From assembly GCF_054482595.1 (NCBI RefSeq), contig NZ_CM137008.1: 64,000 bases of DNA, one strand, 5' to 3'. Position numbers and translations under genes: made by a program. Within the stretch, counting starts at the first letter, position 1. Each line of letters begins with the position of its first letter. The notes below the pieces were generated by a model. The model made no database searches and was not told the origin of the DNA. It worked only from the letters and a program-made list of their open reading frames with translations. Shown one piece after another: positions 10,526 through 21,951 of this stretch.

Positions 10526-10936
10526 TTAGATTTTAAGTTTGTCCTGGGCTACAACGACAGGTTTTCCGGATGTGTCGATGACTCCTACCGTCGGTACGCC
10601 ATTTTTGATTTCGAAGAACGGTTTGTTGCTACCTGAGCACAGTTGATTGTCCCCGTATTCAATCATTTGTGCTTTCCCGGTTTTCAGGTTAACTACCGAG
10701 ACAGTGTAGTCGTAGCACCAGGCACCACCACGTTCAAGCACGAAAACATAGCTGTTATCTTTATAGTTGAACTGATTCTTTGTCTGGCAATTCATACCGT
10801 CAATCTCAGTACAGGAAAACGCTTCTGTAGTATTAACGTATTTGATGTTATTTGGCAGTTTTACTTGTTTCGCAGTAGCGAAGACAGAGAACAGAATAGT
10901 TACAGCAACGAGTAAAGTTTTGATAAAAGTTTTCAT
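10526..10936 (-). CDS. Small secreted protein of unknown function (4 Cys)
   Basis: 136 aa, N-terminal signal peptide MKTFIKTLLVAVTILFSVFATA, four cysteines. Confidence 0.6.
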   Translation of the reverse strand: MKTFIKTLLVAVTILFSVFATAKQVKLPNNIKYVNTTEAFSCTEIDGMNCQTKNQFNYKDNSYVFVLERGGAWCYDYTVSVVNLKTGKAQMIEYGDNQLCSGSNKPFFEIKNGVPTVGVIDTSGKPVVVAQDKLKI

Positions 10937-10951
10937 GATAGACTCCTTAAA

Positions 10952-11440
10952 TTAGTTAACCGCAGCTACGTAGTTTTTCACCAGATACGCGAATTCATGC
11001 ACGCCAATTTCACCGAACCAAACCAGGTAGGCCGGGTCATCTAAACCAAAGTAACGGTAGCCAACAACTTCATGGGTTTTTGGGTTATAGAGTGTTACGA
11101 TAAAGTCCCAGCCGCAGGTATTGGCTTTGCAACCGTCGCCCTGGAGCCAGACTGTACCGTTAATGTTTACTGGCGTGATACCTCCACCAGGGCCATCCAT
11201 ATAGCCGCCTTTACCGAACATGCCGCTCAGTCCGACCGGTTTTAATGCTTTGTCGATAGCGGCTTTGTAGGTAGCGTCACCTTCGTACAACTCGTACGTT
11301 GATGGACACGCTCCAGGTTGTTCAGCCCAGGCTTCCGGGTTACAACTAAGTGCTTGTTTTACGGTAGCCGCTTCTGCGTTAAAGTTAAAGCCCGTGAACA
11401 GAACCGCCAGAAATAACATAAGGGTATGTAAACGTTTCAT
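10952..11440 (-). CDS. Secreted protein, possibly Ivy-like (C-K-x3-C loop)
   Basis: Internal start MKRLHTLMLFLAVLFTGFNFNAEA (signal peptide); motif GCKANTCGW resembles Ivy CKPHDCG loop but lacks His; track ORF 10952..11743 is N-terminally extended. Confidence 0.5.
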   Translation of the reverse strand: MKRLHTLMLFLAVLFTGFNFNAEAATVKQALSCNPEAWAEQPGACPSTYELYEGDATYKAAIDKALKPVGLSGMFGKGGYMDGPGGGITPVNINGTVWLQGDGCKANTCGWDFIVTLYNPKTHEVVGYRYFGLDDPAYLVWFGEIGVHEFAYLVKNYVAAVN

Positions 11441-11728
11441 TGTAAATATTCTTCCGTTGTAAATGGCGCTGGAAAATTTCTCATCAGTGAAACCTTCCGG
11501 AAGTTTCCCCCCCTTGTATGATGTATATCGCCAGTATTTTATTTCATCCCGGCTGTAATTTTTATATTCCCCGGCACGTGCAATAACGCTGACCAGAGAT
11601 ATAAGGCTCATTAATAACTTTACAGGTAATTTCATAATTAAATTTCCAGTGAGTGAATTGACAGGTGAGGGGTAAAACTTTCTCTCAGGTAATATATATC
11701 TGAAAATATTTTCAATAACACCAGACAG

Positions 11729-11755
11729 GAAAAACACCACCACAGGCGGTGGCGT
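11729..11755 (-). terminator. Putative Rho-independent terminator after patatin gene
   Basis: Stem ccacc / ggtgg with 6-nt loop followed on minus strand by tgttttt. Confidence 0.45.
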
Positions 11756-11770: not shown

Positions 11771-12841
11771 TTATTTAATCCGGGCCATCGCGTTTCTCAG
11801 TGCCAAATCTGCCTCTTCCGTTATATCCAGGCTTTTCTGCAATACCGCCTCTGACCGGGTCAGTGCCTGACGTGCTGCCAGCGGTTTCCGGATATGCTCC
11901 ATCGCCAGCATCGTGTCTTCATAGCCCTGCTGACGCCAGGCGTCGGTATGTGCCGATGTAAAACTGAGCAGACCGCCGCTGTTGCCACCATCACCTGCAT
12001 ATTTCAGCCTTTTCCGGGGACGGATCTCAAGGATTGTGGTGTCCGGAAAAGCCTGGCGATCCCATAAAGAACCGTCACTCAGATGCGTCACAATCACCAT
12101 ATTGCATCCGGCATCGACCAGAGGCGTCACAGGGGTATTTCCCTGCATATTTCGCCATCCTCCCATACCACCATCACCGAACATTGTCCCCTGAACCTCA
12201 CGGGGACGGAACAGCAGGGGCAGCGCGGCTGACGCAAGCAGAGCCTCTTTCTGCTGTCCGCGGGGCAGGCTCTGGATATGCTGAAAAACGGCGTTTTTCG
12301 TGGTTCCGACACCCAGTTCAGCACGAATGCAGTCAATAATATCCTGCATGCCCCCTTCTGTGGGGTACAGCGACACATACAGCGGTAGCCCGTCTGCCAG
12401 AGCATCAGTATCAAGATAATGATCCATCAGCGCTGTCAGGGGCTCATCTGACAACAACGGCTGAGCCATCAGATTGTCAAACCCGTTGATTGTCGATATA
12501 TGGCGAAGAAGCGTCGTAAGCAGTGCTCCTGCACGTCCGGGGATCTGGCAGAGGTTCATTGCCTGGAACAATTTTTTCAGCAATGAAAAGTAAACCAATC
12601 TGTTTACCGACAGCACCTGATTATTCCCCAGATGATCCCAGAGCGCCTCCAGGCGTACGGCAGCTTCTGACAGATCGGGAGAGGCCGCGATAATGGCACC
12701 ATTGAATGCGCCAATGCTGGCCCCTGAAACCATGCTGATCTGTGTACCACACTCTGCCAGTGCCTTAACCACTCCCGCCTGATAAGCGCCCACCGCCCCG
12801 CCACCGGACAGCACCAGCCCCGTTTTCATTTCTGTACTCAT
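11771..12841 (-). CDS. Patatin-like phospholipase
   Basis: GGGAVGAYQAG oxyanion-hole motif, GASIG (GxSxG) nucleophile, DGG motif (FGDGGMGG); start overlaps upstream stop (ATGA). Confidence 0.85.
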   Translation of the reverse strand: MSTEMKTGLVLSGGGAVGAYQAGVVKALAECGTQISMVSGASIGAFNGAIIAASPDLSEAAVRLEALWDHLGNNQVLSVNRLVYFSLLKKLFQAMNLCQIPGRAGALLTTLLRHISTINGFDNLMAQPLLSDEPLTALMDHYLDTDALADGLPLYVSLYPTEGGMQDIIDCIRAELGVGTTKNAVFQHIQSLPRGQQKEALLASAALPLLFRPREVQGTMFGDGGMGGWRNMQGNTPVTPLVDAGCNMVIVTHLSDGSLWDRQAFPDTTILEIRPRKRLKYAGDGGNSGGLLSFTSAHTDAWRQQGYEDTMLAMEHIRKPLAARQALTRSEAVLQKSLDITEEADLALRNAMARIK

Positions 12842-13743
12842 GCAGCCCCCTTCTGAAATATTTCATCGACCATACTTTCAGAGAGGCGTTCTGCAGAGCA
12901 GAGGCGAGGCATGCGAACCGGTAAGTGTTCTGCAGCCTGCGTGGTTGACCAGATCACCGGATGCTGCTCTTCACTGCACCAGTCTCCCAGCCAGTTAATC
13001 GCGTCATGCCACTCGTTATCTGCCTGCTCCCGGCCCTGACCACCAAGCCAGTCCAGAGTGTTCAGACGCACGGTTGCACTACCGCCACTCTCCTGTGCCA
13101 TCTGCGTTAATGCTTTATGTCTGAGAATATCCAGTAGCTGGTTAACCTGGCCTGTTTCGCCCTGACGTATCACATCACCAAACGCGCCCCAGCGAAGCTC
13201 TTCAAGTGCCACATAACAACGTCCGGCAGGGGAAAATGACGCATATCGCCCGGCGCTCCACCATGAGAATATCTGCTCAAGATGTAACTGCGCCCGCTGA
13301 ACCTGGTCAACACGGTGGAGTTTTTCTTCAAGATGATTCAGTTTATGGTGAACCTGATCGGCCAGGGTGAGTAACTGCTCCCGCGTATCTGCGGAATAAT
13401 GCGCCAGCCTGGCTGTATCACTGACCAGTGAACTGACCCTGTCGTTTACCCGGGTAATCGCGTAGTTTGTGGTGGCAAGTGACGTTGTCATCTCCGTCAG
13501 CCAGCGCAGGGACGCCTCAACGCCCTGTGCAAGCGACGCATTGATGGCATTCTGCCGTGCAGCGCCTTCGCCGGTCAGCCCCTCTTTTAAACGCCGGAAG
13601 AACGTGCGCTCTCCGGCCGTGCGGATATGCTCCTGTGCAACATCGATTCCGTTTGCGAAATCAACCACAAATTTTTCAGGAAGACAGGTGAGTACCTGAC
13701 ATACCCGGTTATCAGCAATTTGTTGAATAAATGGTGAAGTCAC
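12838..13743 (-). CDS. Hypothetical coiled-coil protein, middle gene of operon
   Basis: 301 aa, helical/heptad-rich, no recognised domain; ATGA overlaps with both neighbours. Confidence 0.7.
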   Translation of the reverse strand: MTSPFIQQIADNRVCQVLTCLPEKFVVDFANGIDVAQEHIRTAGERTFFRRLKEGLTGEGAARQNAINASLAQGVEASLRWLTEMTTSLATTNYAITRVNDRVSSLVSDTARLAHYSADTREQLLTLADQVHHKLNHLEEKLHRVDQVQRAQLHLEQIFSWWSAGRYASFSPAGRCYVALEELRWGAFGDVIRQGETGQVNQLLDILRHKALTQMAQESGGSATVRLNTLDWLGGQGREQADNEWHDAINWLGDWCSEEQHPVIWSTTQAAEHLPVRMPRLCSAERLSESMVDEIFQKGAA

Positions 13744-16136
13744 AGCATTGTCTCCAGCTCTTCCCTCAGCGCCTTACTGTCAGTAATGAGCTCAGGAACC
13801 CTTTCATTTAATGCCTGAAGTCGCCCGGTAAGTCGTTCCTGCGCCTGCTGATCGCGTTTATGATCCTCAGAGCTCTGAATCAGCGTGTTACGCAGTTGTT
13901 CAACTTTCTCCCTGAATGCGCAGAAAAAGGCATCGATTTCCTGGCGGACGGGCTGGTTAATATCCTGCTCAATGGATGCCTGCAGCTCCCCGAAATATGC
14001 CCGGGTCAGTGACATAACTTCCTCTCTGACCTTGTTGATATTGATCACGCTGCGACTCACATCCTCGTCATAGTTTTCCCAGCCCAGGTCACTGGTGCCA
14101 AACCATCGACAAACGGTTCCCCATACGCCACTCTGCCGACGGCGACGGGTGACGGTCTCCGTTCTTTCCTCCATAAGCGCACTCAGATTTATTTTTACCG
14201 CGAGCCGGGTCTGTAACTGGCTGACTGCCGGAAAACTGATTTTTACGGTAAAGCCCTCATCCTCCAGGCGGGCATTGATGCGACCGGCAATGTTTTCTGT
14301 GGCGTACAGGGCCGTGCCACGAAAACCTGTTTCAATCCCGCTGACGATTTTCTCCAGCTCAGGCCGGAACTGTGCTTCAGCCTCACGGTGCAGGCTGGTC
14401 ACGGTCGATTCGATTTGCGTCATCAGTTCAAGGGCTTCCCTGCGATCACTGAATTTTATTTCGGGGCTGTCCGGGGCAAAATCTCGTTTCCTGTAATCCT
14501 CCCGGCCCTGGTTGTTGATACCGGACCATTGAGAAATTTTCCCCCATAATCCGGACTGAGACCTTCGTTGTTCTGCGTCTTCTTCCTCCAGCATTTGCTG
14601 TTCTTTGCGTTTACCGCTTCTGAAATAGTCATTCAGCTCCTCTTCCAGTGAGGTGCAGACCCCCGTCAGTAATTCCCGGGTTTTAGTATCGATCTCCTCC
14701 ATGGCCATTCTGACATCAGTGGTCATCTGCTCCTGACAGTCCGCGATTTCCCGGATATCCGCAAGCAGGCTGGTGATATGCGACTGCAGTGACTGAATGC
14801 TTTGCTGTAGCCCCTGATGGCGTAACAACAGGTATTCACTGATATTTTCTGCATTCTGCATCAGTTTTGCGGCGGCAGAGTCAACCGCCAGTGCCGCAGC
14901 TCTGGAATGTGAGCTCTGTATGACTTCCGTTATCAGTTGATCGATAAGTGAGCCTTCCCACAGGTCTGTCGCCCCTTCAGTTGCCAGTTCACTGTCTTTA
15001 CAGACGTATTCTTTTTTCATGCAACCGAAGGCACCTCTGATAAAATCATCGACCCAGGCTTCATCAACAGGAAGGGTTCCGTTTTTCCGTAACTCATGAA
15101 GCGCACGGTTAGCCAGGTATGCCTGGCGTGAGGATCCGGGATAAACGCGGGAGGCGGGCAGCACATCGCTGTTCAGCATTGCCGGAACTTTCTGGCGTAC
15201 GGCATCTGCCCCATCGCCATTGCGGTCTTTCTCATCAAATTTATTGACCAGTACAAACAGGCGGCCGGCTGATACGTCAGCAATGGCATTAAGCTCTTTA
15301 CGGACGTCTTCATCCGCTTTTGAGTTCATCTGGGTGTAATCCATCACAGCCAGAACCGCAGAGGCTTTCTGCAGTTGATCCCGCATCATCACTTCCATCT
15401 GCGGTTGTCCGGCCTCATTAGGGCCGGGGGTATCCAGCAGTGTGAGTGTTCCCTGGCATGCATCCATCCCCACCAGATGGCTGAATTCCACGTCGATCAC
15501 CGGCAGTTTCTGCACTTCTGCGTATTCATCAAAAGGAAATTCAGTCCCCATTGCCGCAGCAAGACGAACCAGATCGTTTAACGATGCCAGTCCGGTAAAG
15601 ATTTCCTCCTCCCCGTGGTATTCATTTTTGAGCCAGCCATCATCCGTCAGAATATCCAGCAGTTCGCGGGTATCCCCGGTTTGCTGCAGGGTCTGTGCGA
15701 CCTGCTGTCCTGCCGGGGTGGCGAGTTTTTCCTGCAGTGTGATTAATAAATTGCGGACAGGCTGAATATGTTCCAGATGGAGAACCGGCTCAGTTTTTCC
15801 GGGAACGTGGCGGATGAGCGTCGGTACAGAGGTCATGGGGCGGTTACGGTTAGGCAGAATTTCCTGCCCCACAATGGCATTGATGGTGGTTGATTTGCCT
15901 GCTTTCATCGTGCCGACAACAGCCAGCACCATCTCCCTGCGGGCGGTTTTGATTTGTTCGCCCTCCAGCTCCTCAATTCTTTTCAGTGCTTTCTGTTTAT
16001 CAAAAAGCAGTCTGTTTTCGTTCTTACTGTCAGATAACACATCTGGCTCCTCAACCATTTGCCGGAGCAGATTAATGTTCAGTTGCAAAAGTCGGTCGGC
16101 TTCATCACAAAGCAGGGCGATGTTCTTTTCGTGCAT
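13740..16136 (-). CDS. Dynamin-like GTPase (bacterial dynamin family)
   Basis: 798 aa; G1 GTMKAGKST, G3 DTPG, G4 NKFD, long helical C-terminal region. Confidence 0.85.
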   Translation of the reverse strand: MHEKNIALLCDEADRLLQLNINLLRQMVEEPDVLSDSKNENRLLFDKQKALKRIEELEGEQIKTARREMVLAVVGTMKAGKSTTINAIVGQEILPNRNRPMTSVPTLIRHVPGKTEPVLHLEHIQPVRNLLITLQEKLATPAGQQVAQTLQQTGDTRELLDILTDDGWLKNEYHGEEEIFTGLASLNDLVRLAAAMGTEFPFDEYAEVQKLPVIDVEFSHLVGMDACQGTLTLLDTPGPNEAGQPQMEVMMRDQLQKASAVLAVMDYTQMNSKADEDVRKELNAIADVSAGRLFVLVNKFDEKDRNGDGADAVRQKVPAMLNSDVLPASRVYPGSSRQAYLANRALHELRKNGTLPVDEAWVDDFIRGAFGCMKKEYVCKDSELATEGATDLWEGSLIDQLITEVIQSSHSRAAALAVDSAAAKLMQNAENISEYLLLRHQGLQQSIQSLQSHITSLLADIREIADCQEQMTTDVRMAMEEIDTKTRELLTGVCTSLEEELNDYFRSGKRKEQQMLEEEDAEQRRSQSGLWGKISQWSGINNQGREDYRKRDFAPDSPEIKFSDRREALELMTQIESTVTSLHREAEAQFRPELEKIVSGIETGFRGTALYATENIAGRINARLEDEGFTVKISFPAVSQLQTRLAVKINLSALMEERTETVTRRRRQSGVWGTVCRWFGTSDLGWENYDEDVSRSVININKVREEVMSLTRAYFGELQASIEQDINQPVRQEIDAFFCAFREKVEQLRNTLIQSSEDHKRDQQAQERLTGRLQALNERVPELITDSKALREELETML

Positions 16137-16189
16137 TATTTAACCTTCCTAAGACGCATTTTCATGACAACCACGGAGGAGGTCATTCA

Positions 16190-16270
16190 CTACAAACGAT
16201 CGTTTATAACGATCGATATGATAGTAACGATCGATGTATTCTATTAACTTGAGAAACACAACGCAAGGGG
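16190..16270 (-). promoter_or_regulatory. Sigma70-like promoter followed by three clustered GATC sites (agn43-type Dam/OxyR switch candidate)
   Basis: On minus strand: -35 TTGCGT, 17-bp spacer, -10 TAGAAT, then GATC at about 16229, 16211 and 16198 within 35 bp; RBS aggaagg before dynamin ATG. Confidence 0.55.
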
Positions 16271-16353
16271 ACAACCCGGGTATGGCTGCGTTTGCATAGT
16301 GTTTTCATGGAGTTAAAAATCTGTAACAACAGCCTGGTACATCACCACCGGGT

Positions 16354-17265
16354 TCAGAAGAAAATCCAGTTCCATACCGCGCGGGCAACAGAGACCACCG
16401 AGTCACGGACGGCGCGCAGAACCGTGCGTGCAACAGAGGCAATGCAGACGCTCTCCGCCGTGTCAAATATCCGGTCCACCGCACCGGTAAACTGTTCACG
16501 GGCCTGAGACCGGACAGACTCCGTGCGCAGCTCGTCCTGCAGGCGGGTCATCAGGGGACTGGCGGCATGGTCGGGAAGTGCTGTCATGAGCGCACTGACC
16601 AGCGTATCCAGTTCCCAGCCGGTGCGGGCCGATACGGCAACAACCCGATGTACGGGCCGGAACAGACGGAATACCGCCTCCGTTTTTTCGCGAATGTTCT
16701 GTGCCTGTGCGGGAGAAGGCTGAATACCGGCCATATCCCATTCATGGCAGGGCTCCGTTTTATCGGCCTGCATCACCACAAACAGTACCCGCTGATGTCC
16801 CCGGTGCAGGATGTGTCGCCAGAAATACTCATCCACAGACAGGGCACGGTCATCGGCTTTAATCAGCCACAGTACCAGGTCCAGTTCGGGCAGAATGTCA
16901 CGGTACAGGGCTTCATACTCTGCATCCCTGTCCCGGCTCTCGCCCACCCCGGGCAGGTCAGTGATAACCATGCTGTGACCATGGCCATTCAGACGGAAGC
17001 GCTGCACTTCCCGGGTGCCGGCGTGAACATCACTGACCGGGGTGACCTCCCCCTGAAACAGCGCATTACAGAGTGAGGATTTACCGGCCCCGCTTTTCCC
17101 CATAATGCCAATCACGGGTTCGTGACTGGTGAGTTTGCGCAGATGTTCCAGGATGTGACGGGAAAGTGAGTAAGGCAGGGAGGAGAGCGGTTTTTCGATT
17201 GCCTCAATGGCATCAGACGGATTCATACATGTATTCCCGGTGAAAAAAGACAAAACCCCGCGCAC
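16354..17265 (-). CDS. yeeP: YfjP/YeeP-family GTPase
   Basis: P-loop GIMGKSGAGKSS, DLPG, recognised YfjP/YeeP-like sequence; alternative start at MNPSD (17226). Confidence 0.8.
   Translation of the reverse strand: MRGVLSFFTGNTCMNPSDAIEAIEKPLSSLPYSLSRHILEHLRKLTSHEPVIGIMGKSGAGKSSLCNALFQGEVTPVSDVHAGTREVQRFRLNGHGHSMVITDLPGVGESRDRDAEYEALYRDILPELDLVLWLIKADDRALSVDEYFWRHILHRGHQRVLFVVMQADKTEPCHEWDMAGIQPSPAQAQNIREKTEAVFRLFRPVHRVVAVSARTGWELDTLVSALMTALPDHAASPLMTRLQDELRTESVRSQAREQFTGAVDRIFDTAESVCIASVARTVLRAVRDSVVSVARAVWNWIFF

Positions 17266-19591: not shown

Positions 19592-21951
<2,360 letters not shown>

Follow-up and report, generated by a model that had tools for sequence, protein, structure and literature searches.

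Dam/OxyR phase variation in Escherichia coli has been described for the antigen 43 (Ag43) adhesin family. At agn43 (flu), a single OxyR repressor site contains three GATC sites, the methylation of which abolishes OxyR binding while bound OxyR blocks Dam; dam mutants are locked OFF, oxyR mutants are locked ON, and the switching rate is about 10^-3 per generation (PMC2909390, PMC3764049, PMC4872104). The agn43 region still switched when it drove a heterologous gene fusion (PMC4872104). Here we describe a candidate switch of this kind with a different cargo, namely the 217-bp intergenic segment at positions 16137-16353 of a 64,000-nucleotide stretch of DNA (hereafter, the window) from contig NZ_CM137008.1 of RefSeq assembly GCF_054482595.1, which lies upstream of three genes encoding a dynamin-family GTPase, an RdcB-family protein and a patatin-like phospholipase.

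The Salmonella gtr and opvAB loci are controlled by the same pair of proteins, and competition between OxyR and Dam at GATC-containing OxyR half-sites leads to heritable ON and OFF states in both (PMC2909390, PMC4856963). At gtr, three OxyR half-sites and four GATCs, arranged in two pairs upstream of the promoter, allow alternative activating and repressing occupancy (PMC2909390), and opvAB has four sites. The OxyR/Dam examples in a 2026 review are agn43 and Salmonella gtr; opvAB is described in other papers. The Ag43 family, gtr and opvAB all alter the cell surface.

Homology with agn43 and cah Regulatory Regions

The window comes from a CP4-44-like island at the tmaR/yeeA locus and is 100% identical to E. 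coli WP4-S18-ESBL-08. The intergenic segment is flanked by two minus-strand genes, a yeeP-like GTPase gene (stop at 16354) and the dynamin gene (ATG at 16136). In K-12 CP4-44, the equivalent place holds yeeP, the flu regulatory region and then flu, and the 3' end of the GTPase gene of the window is near-identical both to that of yeeP and to those of the GTPase genes found upstream of cah/Ag43. A first-pass annotation of the window had placed an agn43-like switch at the position equivalent to that in K-12 CP4-44, and this was borne out, as the region immediately follows the 3' terminus of the orthologous yeeP-like GTPase gene.

Alignment with K-12 flu, O157-type cah and another Ag43 allele revealed near-identity at the 3' end of the GTPase gene, followed by divergence, after which the register is regained from the -35 hexamer to about +50. 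Within this core, identity is 68% with flu, 72% with cah and 65% with a Citrobacter braakii counterpart, with scores 8-10 standard deviations above those of shuffled sequences. The flu/agn43 architecture that had been claimed for the segment is also seen in detail: the segment shares with the agn43 and cah/Ag43 regions the island slot, an identical -10 hexamer (TAGAAT), the 17-nt spacer, and three GATCs that follow in the same order and at nearly the same spacing within one OxyR-consensus operator. The nearest type is cah, with which the segment shares the -35 hexamer TTGCGT and the pattern GTTTrTAGTG...AATGrCCT after the third GATC (GATC-III). Judged from these alignments, the minus strand of 16137-16353 and the regulatory region of agn43/cah are truly homologous.

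The departures from agn43 and cah concern spacing, OxyR match (see below), leader and cargo. GATC-I and GATC-II are 18 bp apart here, against 19 bp in every Ag43-type region examined, whereas the distance from GATC-II to GATC-III is 13 bp throughout. The leader is about 220-260 nt long in flu/cah and only 95 nt long here, and it is unrelated beyond about +50. The agn43/cah regions drive an autotransporter adhesin, whereas the segment of the window stands before a cytoplasmic dynamin/RdcB/patatin operon. Thus, the locus is not an Ag43/Cah autotransporter locus: a dynamin-family gene follows at 95 nt from the predicted start, as the first-pass annotation had suggested in assigning a different cargo to the switch, and the likeness of the leaders stops at about +50.

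Promoter and Predicted Transcription Start

The promoter had been described as a good sigma70 promoter on the minus strand. Its elements are present as described (TTGCGT, 17 nt, TAGAAT; Table 1), but the adjective is too generous, as TTGCGT agrees with TTGACA at three of six positions, the two hexamers together match the consensus at 8/12, and a generic promoter scan did not call the TTGCGT-17-TAGAAT combination. The scan called an overlapping TTAATA-18-TATCAT inside the operator instead and flagged the inverted repeat of GATC-II and GATC-III as a weak terminator-like hairpin; both calls are treated here as side effects of the dyad symmetry of the operator. What makes the promoter credible is its positional homology with that of agn43/cah. 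From the switch to the dynamin ATG, the scan revealed no convincing terminator and, apart from the call inside the operator, nothing promoter-like.

By homology with K-12 flu, the G of GATC-I is the predicted transcription start, since the K-12 annotation has the IsrC/flu leader RNA begin at the G of the first GATC. Wallecha and colleagues reportedly mapped the agn43 transcription start to the same nucleotide in 2002.

GATC Sites and the Predicted OxyR Operator

The three GATC sites lie just downstream of the -10 and within about 35 bp, exactly as first reported; they span 35 bp, GATC-I begins 6 nt past the -10, and each has the form CGATCG. They had been described as embedded in repeated units with ATAG/CTAT half-sites, which holds in part. 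CGATCG recurs at all three sites, and GATC-I and GATC-II are contained in an 11-bp direct repeat (ATCGATCGTTA) with copies 18 bp apart, but the unit AACGATCG is found only at GATC-III. In addition, GATC-II and GATC-III form an 8-bp inverted repeat. Likewise, the core contains one ATAG (within the -10) and one CTAT, but the remaining OxyR quarter-sites are of the ATCG/CGAT form, and it is these that contain the GATCs.

When the consensus ATAGnTnnnAnCTAT-N7-ATAGnTnnnAnCTAT (20 specified positions) was used to score both strands of the 64-kb window, the predicted 37-bp operator was the top match at 16/20, the runner-up reaching 14. K-12 flu in the same register gives 14/20, and the agn43/cah regions give 13-14/20. 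GATC-I, GATC-II and GATC-III occupy quarter-sites 1, 3 and 4 of the predicted operator. All three GATCs would therefore lie within one OxyR operator at a repressor position, as in agn43. The likeness to Salmonella gtr and opvAB is confined to the use, here predicted, of OxyR and Dam at GATC-containing OxyR half-sites: in those loci, the promoter is preceded by several OxyR sites and paired GATCs (four sites in opvAB), whereas only one operator was found here, at a repressor position and with its three GATCs past the -10, as in the agn43 design.

The density of GATCs was considered as evidence and dropped. The window holds 185 of them, and a triple within 31-40 bp arose in 67% of random placements. 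The case against chance is made by the homology and not by the clustering of GATCs.

Distribution and Junction Types

Of 5426 complete E. coli genomes, 2470 have the dynamin gene. The switch lies directly upstream of this gene, as in the window, in about 1971 of the 5426 (about 36%; type A); upstream of type-A junctions, the sequence varies by strain and may be a TonB-receptor fragment, a type I restriction-modification gene or a regulator. Among these 36% are sequence type 131 (ST131), IAI39, SE15 and some O157 strains. A BLAST search with the 97-bp core matched 6385 places in 3658 genomes; about 1984 genomes have a near-full-length core, and these are essentially the genomes with the dynamin junction. 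All four of the core matches at about 80% identity that were sampled lie upstream of Ag43/Cah genes.

About 500 further genomes, mostly O157:H7, are of type B, in which the likeness to the window ends 11 nt before the dynamin ATG and the order is GTPase, switch, cah, dynamin and RdcB, as in the O157-like E. coli strain 123 (L004, 9268-9379). The 110-bp spacer between cah and dynamin contains no promoter-like or terminator-like site; by contrast, a GC-rich hairpin comes after both K-12 flu and another Ag43 allele. Because the spacer lacks such sites, co-transcription is the simplest reading, and by analogy the type-B dynamin operon is probably transcribed together with cah under the same kind of switch.

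The word "retained" in the first-pass annotation implied that an Ag43 gene had been deleted from between the switch and the operon. This was not established, as type A and the cah type become alike only in the last 11 nt before the dynamin ATG. An origin of the type-A junction by simple, recent loss of cah was considered and rejected: it is unsupported because the leader beyond about +50, that is, its 3' part, is unmatched in flu, in cah and in the intergenic regions downstream of them.

Constraint and Natural Variants

To assess conservation independently of the switch itself, metagenome loci were fetched with an invariant 28-nt bait from the leader. The switch is present in all 42 contigs obtained in this way, with all three GATCs intact in 41. 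Together with RefSeq examples, these loci gave 49 sequences and 26 haplotypes for a test of constraint. Substitutions occur at 3 of 36 functional positions (-35, -10, GATC and OxyR-consensus) versus 40 of the 153 remaining positions of the intergenic region (Fisher p=0.026), and within the 37-bp operator, 2 of 23 specified or GATC positions vary versus 6 of 14 unspecified ones (p=0.035). These patterns are signs of purifying selection by which the functional positions are being kept. The entire type-A intergenic region is 92-100% conserved.

Natural variants of the GATC sites were also observed. In E. coli NCTC9699 (L045, about position 1599, corresponding to window 16218-16235), an 18-bp deletion between the ATCGATCGTTA repeats has removed GATC-I and the CTAT and left two GATCs; deletions with loss of GATC-I were found in only four complete genomes. 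This deletion and the TATC allele of GATC-III (Table 1) are candidate phase-biased or phase-locked alleles.

Leader and Cargo Operon

The predicted leader shows no similarity to the flu/cah leaders beyond about +50 in the alignment. In its predicted fold, the Shine-Dalgarno (SD) sequence AGGAAGG pairs with an upstream CCUCC tract (CCUCCUCC), with a minimum free energy of -25.7 kcal/mol (z = -2.15), and this SD-sequestering hairpin could act as a translational damper on the dynamin gene. A search of Rfam returned no leader RNA family and only a sub-threshold IS102/IsrC match within the operator (19.6 bits, E 0.85).

To judge from their overlapping stop and start codons, the three cargo genes are a translationally coupled operon. 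The dynamin and RdcB proteins belong to the same families as those encoded by rdcA (crfC/yjdA) and rdcB (yjcZ) of K-12, a pair that is not known to include a patatin gene. The dynamin protein matches the NCBIfam CrfC model over its full length at 556 bits, which is below the equivalog cut-off of 1146, and it is therefore regarded as a paralogue of CrfC/RdcA rather than an equivalog, so that the operon is not simply a CrfC/RdcA-RdcB pair. Nor does it fit the LeoA and LeoBC profiles of the dynamin-like Eleos anti-phage system: the dynamin protein gave a marginal LeoBC match (E 8.6e-5, 19.8 bits, about 60 residues), and the RdcB-like protein had no match in PADLOC. PADLOC v2 did not recognize the cassette as a known defence system and returned only marginal matches, to LeoBC and phospholipase effector models.

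Relatives of the island dynamin are either at least 85% identical to it or at most about 41% identical, no intermediate homologues having been found. In all four of the relatives at about 40% identity that were looked up, the order dynamin-YjcZ-patatin is kept. These distant triads, on metagenome or genome contigs (L098, L099, L101 and L102-L104), adjoin genes for a WYL/WCX regulator and MazE/PIN proteins, an NgoFVII-like nuclease, a second dynamin gene, or transposase fragments, and by gene content their surroundings look like a defence-island context. On this comparison, dynamin-YjcZ-patatin is an old, mobile three-gene cassette. No GATC cluster or OxyR-like site was found upstream of the distant cassettes checked, and the coupling to a Dam/OxyR switch therefore appears to be specific to the E. 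coli island slot.

Several other features of the island were recorded. Between the terminator that follows the patatin gene and a block of DUF932, antirestriction, yeeS, yeeT and cbeA-cbtA genes lie two hypothetical genes on the minus strand (10526-11743; 227 and 136 aa in RefSeq), which have no match in PADLOC or NCBIfam. An IS100 insertion (istA/istB; 20084-21885, plus strand), along with many transposase fragments, interrupts the island upstream of the GTPase gene. Beyond about 28000, the window contains metabolic genes (dgo, aspartase, dcu transporters and hypT) mixed with remnants of insertion sequences.

Table 1. Predicted regulatory elements and genes at the dynamin locus (window coordinates).
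Feature	Position	Strand	Basis and remarks
GATC-I (Dam target)	16229..16232	both	Aligns with GATC-I of flu/cah
GATC-II (Dam target)	16211..16214	both	Aligns with flu/cah counterpart
GATC-III (Dam target)	16198..16201	both	Aligns with flu/cah counterpart; TATC in 1/42 metagenome loci
-35 hexamer TTGCGT	16261..16266	-	Same as -35 of cah/Ag43-type regions at aligned position; varies in 1/26 haplotypes
-10 hexamer TAGAAT, 17-nt spacer from -35	16238..16243	-	Unchanged relative to K-12 flu, cah, other Ag43 alleles and Citrobacter; invariant in 26/26 type-A haplotypes
Predicted transcription start, G of GATC-I, 6 nt after -10	16232	-	Inferred from homology with K-12 flu
Predicted OxyR operator ATCGATCGTTACTATCATATCGATCGTTATAAACGAT, 37 bp, about -3 to +34	16199..16235	both	Toledano consensus match 16/20
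Predicted 95-nt 5' leader	16137..16231	-	SD AGGAAGG at 16144-16150; complementary CCTCCTCC at 16175-16182
yeeP-like GTPase gene	16354..17265 (RefSeq coding sequence 16354-17226)	-	Open reading frame list; RefSeq "GTPase family protein"; NCBIfam small-GTPase models matched
Dynamin-family GTPase (CrfC/RdcA paralogue), 798 aa, first cargo gene	13740..16136	-	RefSeq "dynamin family protein"; P-loop GTMKAGKS intact
RdcB/YjcZ-family protein, start overlaps dynamin stop	12838..13743	-	RefSeq name; PF13990 YjcZ at same place in distant triads
Patatin-like phospholipase, start overlaps RdcB stop	11771..12841	-	RefSeq name; weak patatin matches in NCBIfam and PADLOC; GGGAVG, GASIG and DGG motifs
Terminator-like hairpin and T run, likely operon end	11735..11751	-	Follows patatin gene

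Similar Slots and Sites in Other Enterobacteria

The same arrangement was found with yet another cargo in Citrobacter. In Citrobacter braakii (L023, 5108-5129, minus strand) and Citrobacter amalonaticus (L034, 957-978), the sequence after an orthologous GTPase gene (61% identity) contains TAATAGAAT and the three GATCs of a clearly homologous switch, in which GATC spacing is of the Ag43 type and the OxyR match is 14/20. The cargo consists of genes for two small signal-peptide proteins (154 and 157 aa) without a match in NCBIfam, rather than dynamin/RdcB/patatin, and a DUF932 gene comes after it. No description of these GTPase-switch-cargo modules was found in the literature searched. Because Ag43/cah, dynamin and Citrobacter cargos all follow the GTPase gene and switch, the two together appear to act as a slot with exchangeable cargo.

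In unrelated contexts, GATC-18-GATC-13-GATC sites with OxyR matches of 12-15/20 were observed in Rahnella bruchi (L007), Ewingella americana (L044), Citrobacter youngae (L010), Citrobacter portucalensis (L042) and Serratia grimesii (L011), and these may be further Dam/OxyR switches. A separate observation concerns Edwardsiella piscicida (L029, 2147-2200), in which a tandem 13-bp unit (TATCGATCGTTTC) with a GATC in each copy is present in at least four copies just past a terminator-like hairpin.

Discussion

By analogy with agn43, we propose that transcription of the dynamin operon would start at the G of GATC-I (about 16232) and that its state would depend on whether OxyR or Dam reaches the operator first. 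With the GATCs unmethylated, an OxyR tetramer would occupy about -3 to +34, block RNA polymerase and shield the GATCs from Dam, which would be the OFF state; if Dam were the first to methylate after replication, OxyR would be excluded and the operon would be transcribed, which would be the ON state. As each state would re-establish itself after replication, ON and OFF would be heritable and switching would be rare, and in a clonal population dynamin, RdcB and patatin would be expressed in only a fraction of the cells. On the present comparison, it is likely that a working phase-variable switch controls the dynamin operon, and about one-third of E. coli strains probably turn this operon on and off heritably.

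Several points weigh against a working switch. The -35 hexamer is weak, and the tests of constraint gave modest values (p of about 0.03) with haplotypes that are related by descent. Either the 18-bp distance between GATC-I and GATC-II or the stronger OxyR match could bias or abolish bistability. The long leader of flu is absent, and the GTPase gene has no terminator before the switch, so that read-through may add a non-switching component. In addition, the methylome paper on the ST131 strain EC958 (PMC4659465), a lineage with the locus, gives no list of individual sites. Even if switching takes place as proposed, quantitative departures from agn43 are possible in view of the OxyR match, the spacing shorter by 1 bp, the short leader, the SD hairpin and the GTPase read-through.

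Among the other explanations, the segment could be an evolutionary leftover, in which a rearrangement left an agn43-type promoter and operator beside the operon without working bistability, the operon being constitutive, silent or driven by read-through. The presence of cah between the switch and the operon in O157-type strains makes such a history of rearrangement plausible, the weak -35 would fit it, and recent spread could account in part for the conserved sites, given that the whole intergenic region is highly conserved. However, the promoter, GATC and OxyR positions are proportionally less often substituted than either the remaining intergenic positions or the unspecified positions of the operator, and three GATCs are kept in nearly all of the approximately 1971 type-A genomes as well as in 41 of the 42 loci that were retrieved independently of the switch. 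Moreover, a simple recent deletion of cah is not supported as the source of the junction, and no alternative promoter-like site was seen outside the operator. We therefore consider a leftover unlikely.

OxyR and Dam might also regulate the operon without heritable ON and OFF states, through graded or condition-responsive repression, as in the mom gene of phage Mu, which is controlled by Dam and OxyR and for which phase variation is not known (PMC2909390). A stronger OxyR match than that of flu, with GATC-I and GATC-II 1 bp closer, could shift the competition strongly one way, but the locus has every element reported for the agn43 switch, arranged as it is there, with one repressor site over the start and three GATCs inside it, which makes regulation of this kind quite improbable. 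As for a chance arrangement of GATCs and promoter-like hexamers unrelated to agn43, the frequency of GATC triples in random placements and a promoter under the threshold of the scan would be expected from it, yet it is refuted by the alignments: sequence homology and synteny with flu/cah, together with the best OxyR-consensus match in 64 kb, leave it practically no probability. A phase-variable switch of the agn43 type thus remains our preferred reading of the segment.

We found no paper linking the dynamin/RdcB/patatin operon to phase variation, Dam or OxyR, although the search was incomplete and an earlier description is possible. We found the dynamin-RdcB-patatin cassette mentioned only once, where it is listed descriptively as part of an O118 genomic island. 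The methylome papers on ST131, O111 and SMALR, a preprint on phase variation in the gut microbiome and the 2026 review either name agn43 alone or give no data for individual sites. The kind of switch is already known; what is new is a second, non-surface class of cargo, together with an indication that the switch is modular.

More broadly, it is conceivable, though in our view doubtful, that CP4-type islands of Enterobacteriaceae carry a portable slot, consisting of a YeeP-type GTPase gene and a Dam/OxyR switch, for different cargo, and that in about one-third of E. coli this slot places under heritable ON/OFF control a widely conserved cassette, which in other settings neighbours WYL regulators and toxin-antitoxin or restriction-like genes and is a candidate abortive-infection or membrane-attacking defence, as a form of bet-hedging. 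If the switch works as proposed, the agn43 switch would be a reusable module with exchangeable cargo, of which Citrobacter would hold another example. The proposal would also explain why bulk experiments might show the operon as silent or noisy, and genotypes locked ON (oxyR or GATC mutant) or locked OFF (dam) would be usable for finding the function of the cassette. A cytoplasmic, membrane-acting three-gene system would then be ON in only a subpopulation of cells in about 36% of sequenced E. coli, and the epigenetic bet-hedging would concern a costly intracellular system, possibly related to defence, rather than a surface antigen.

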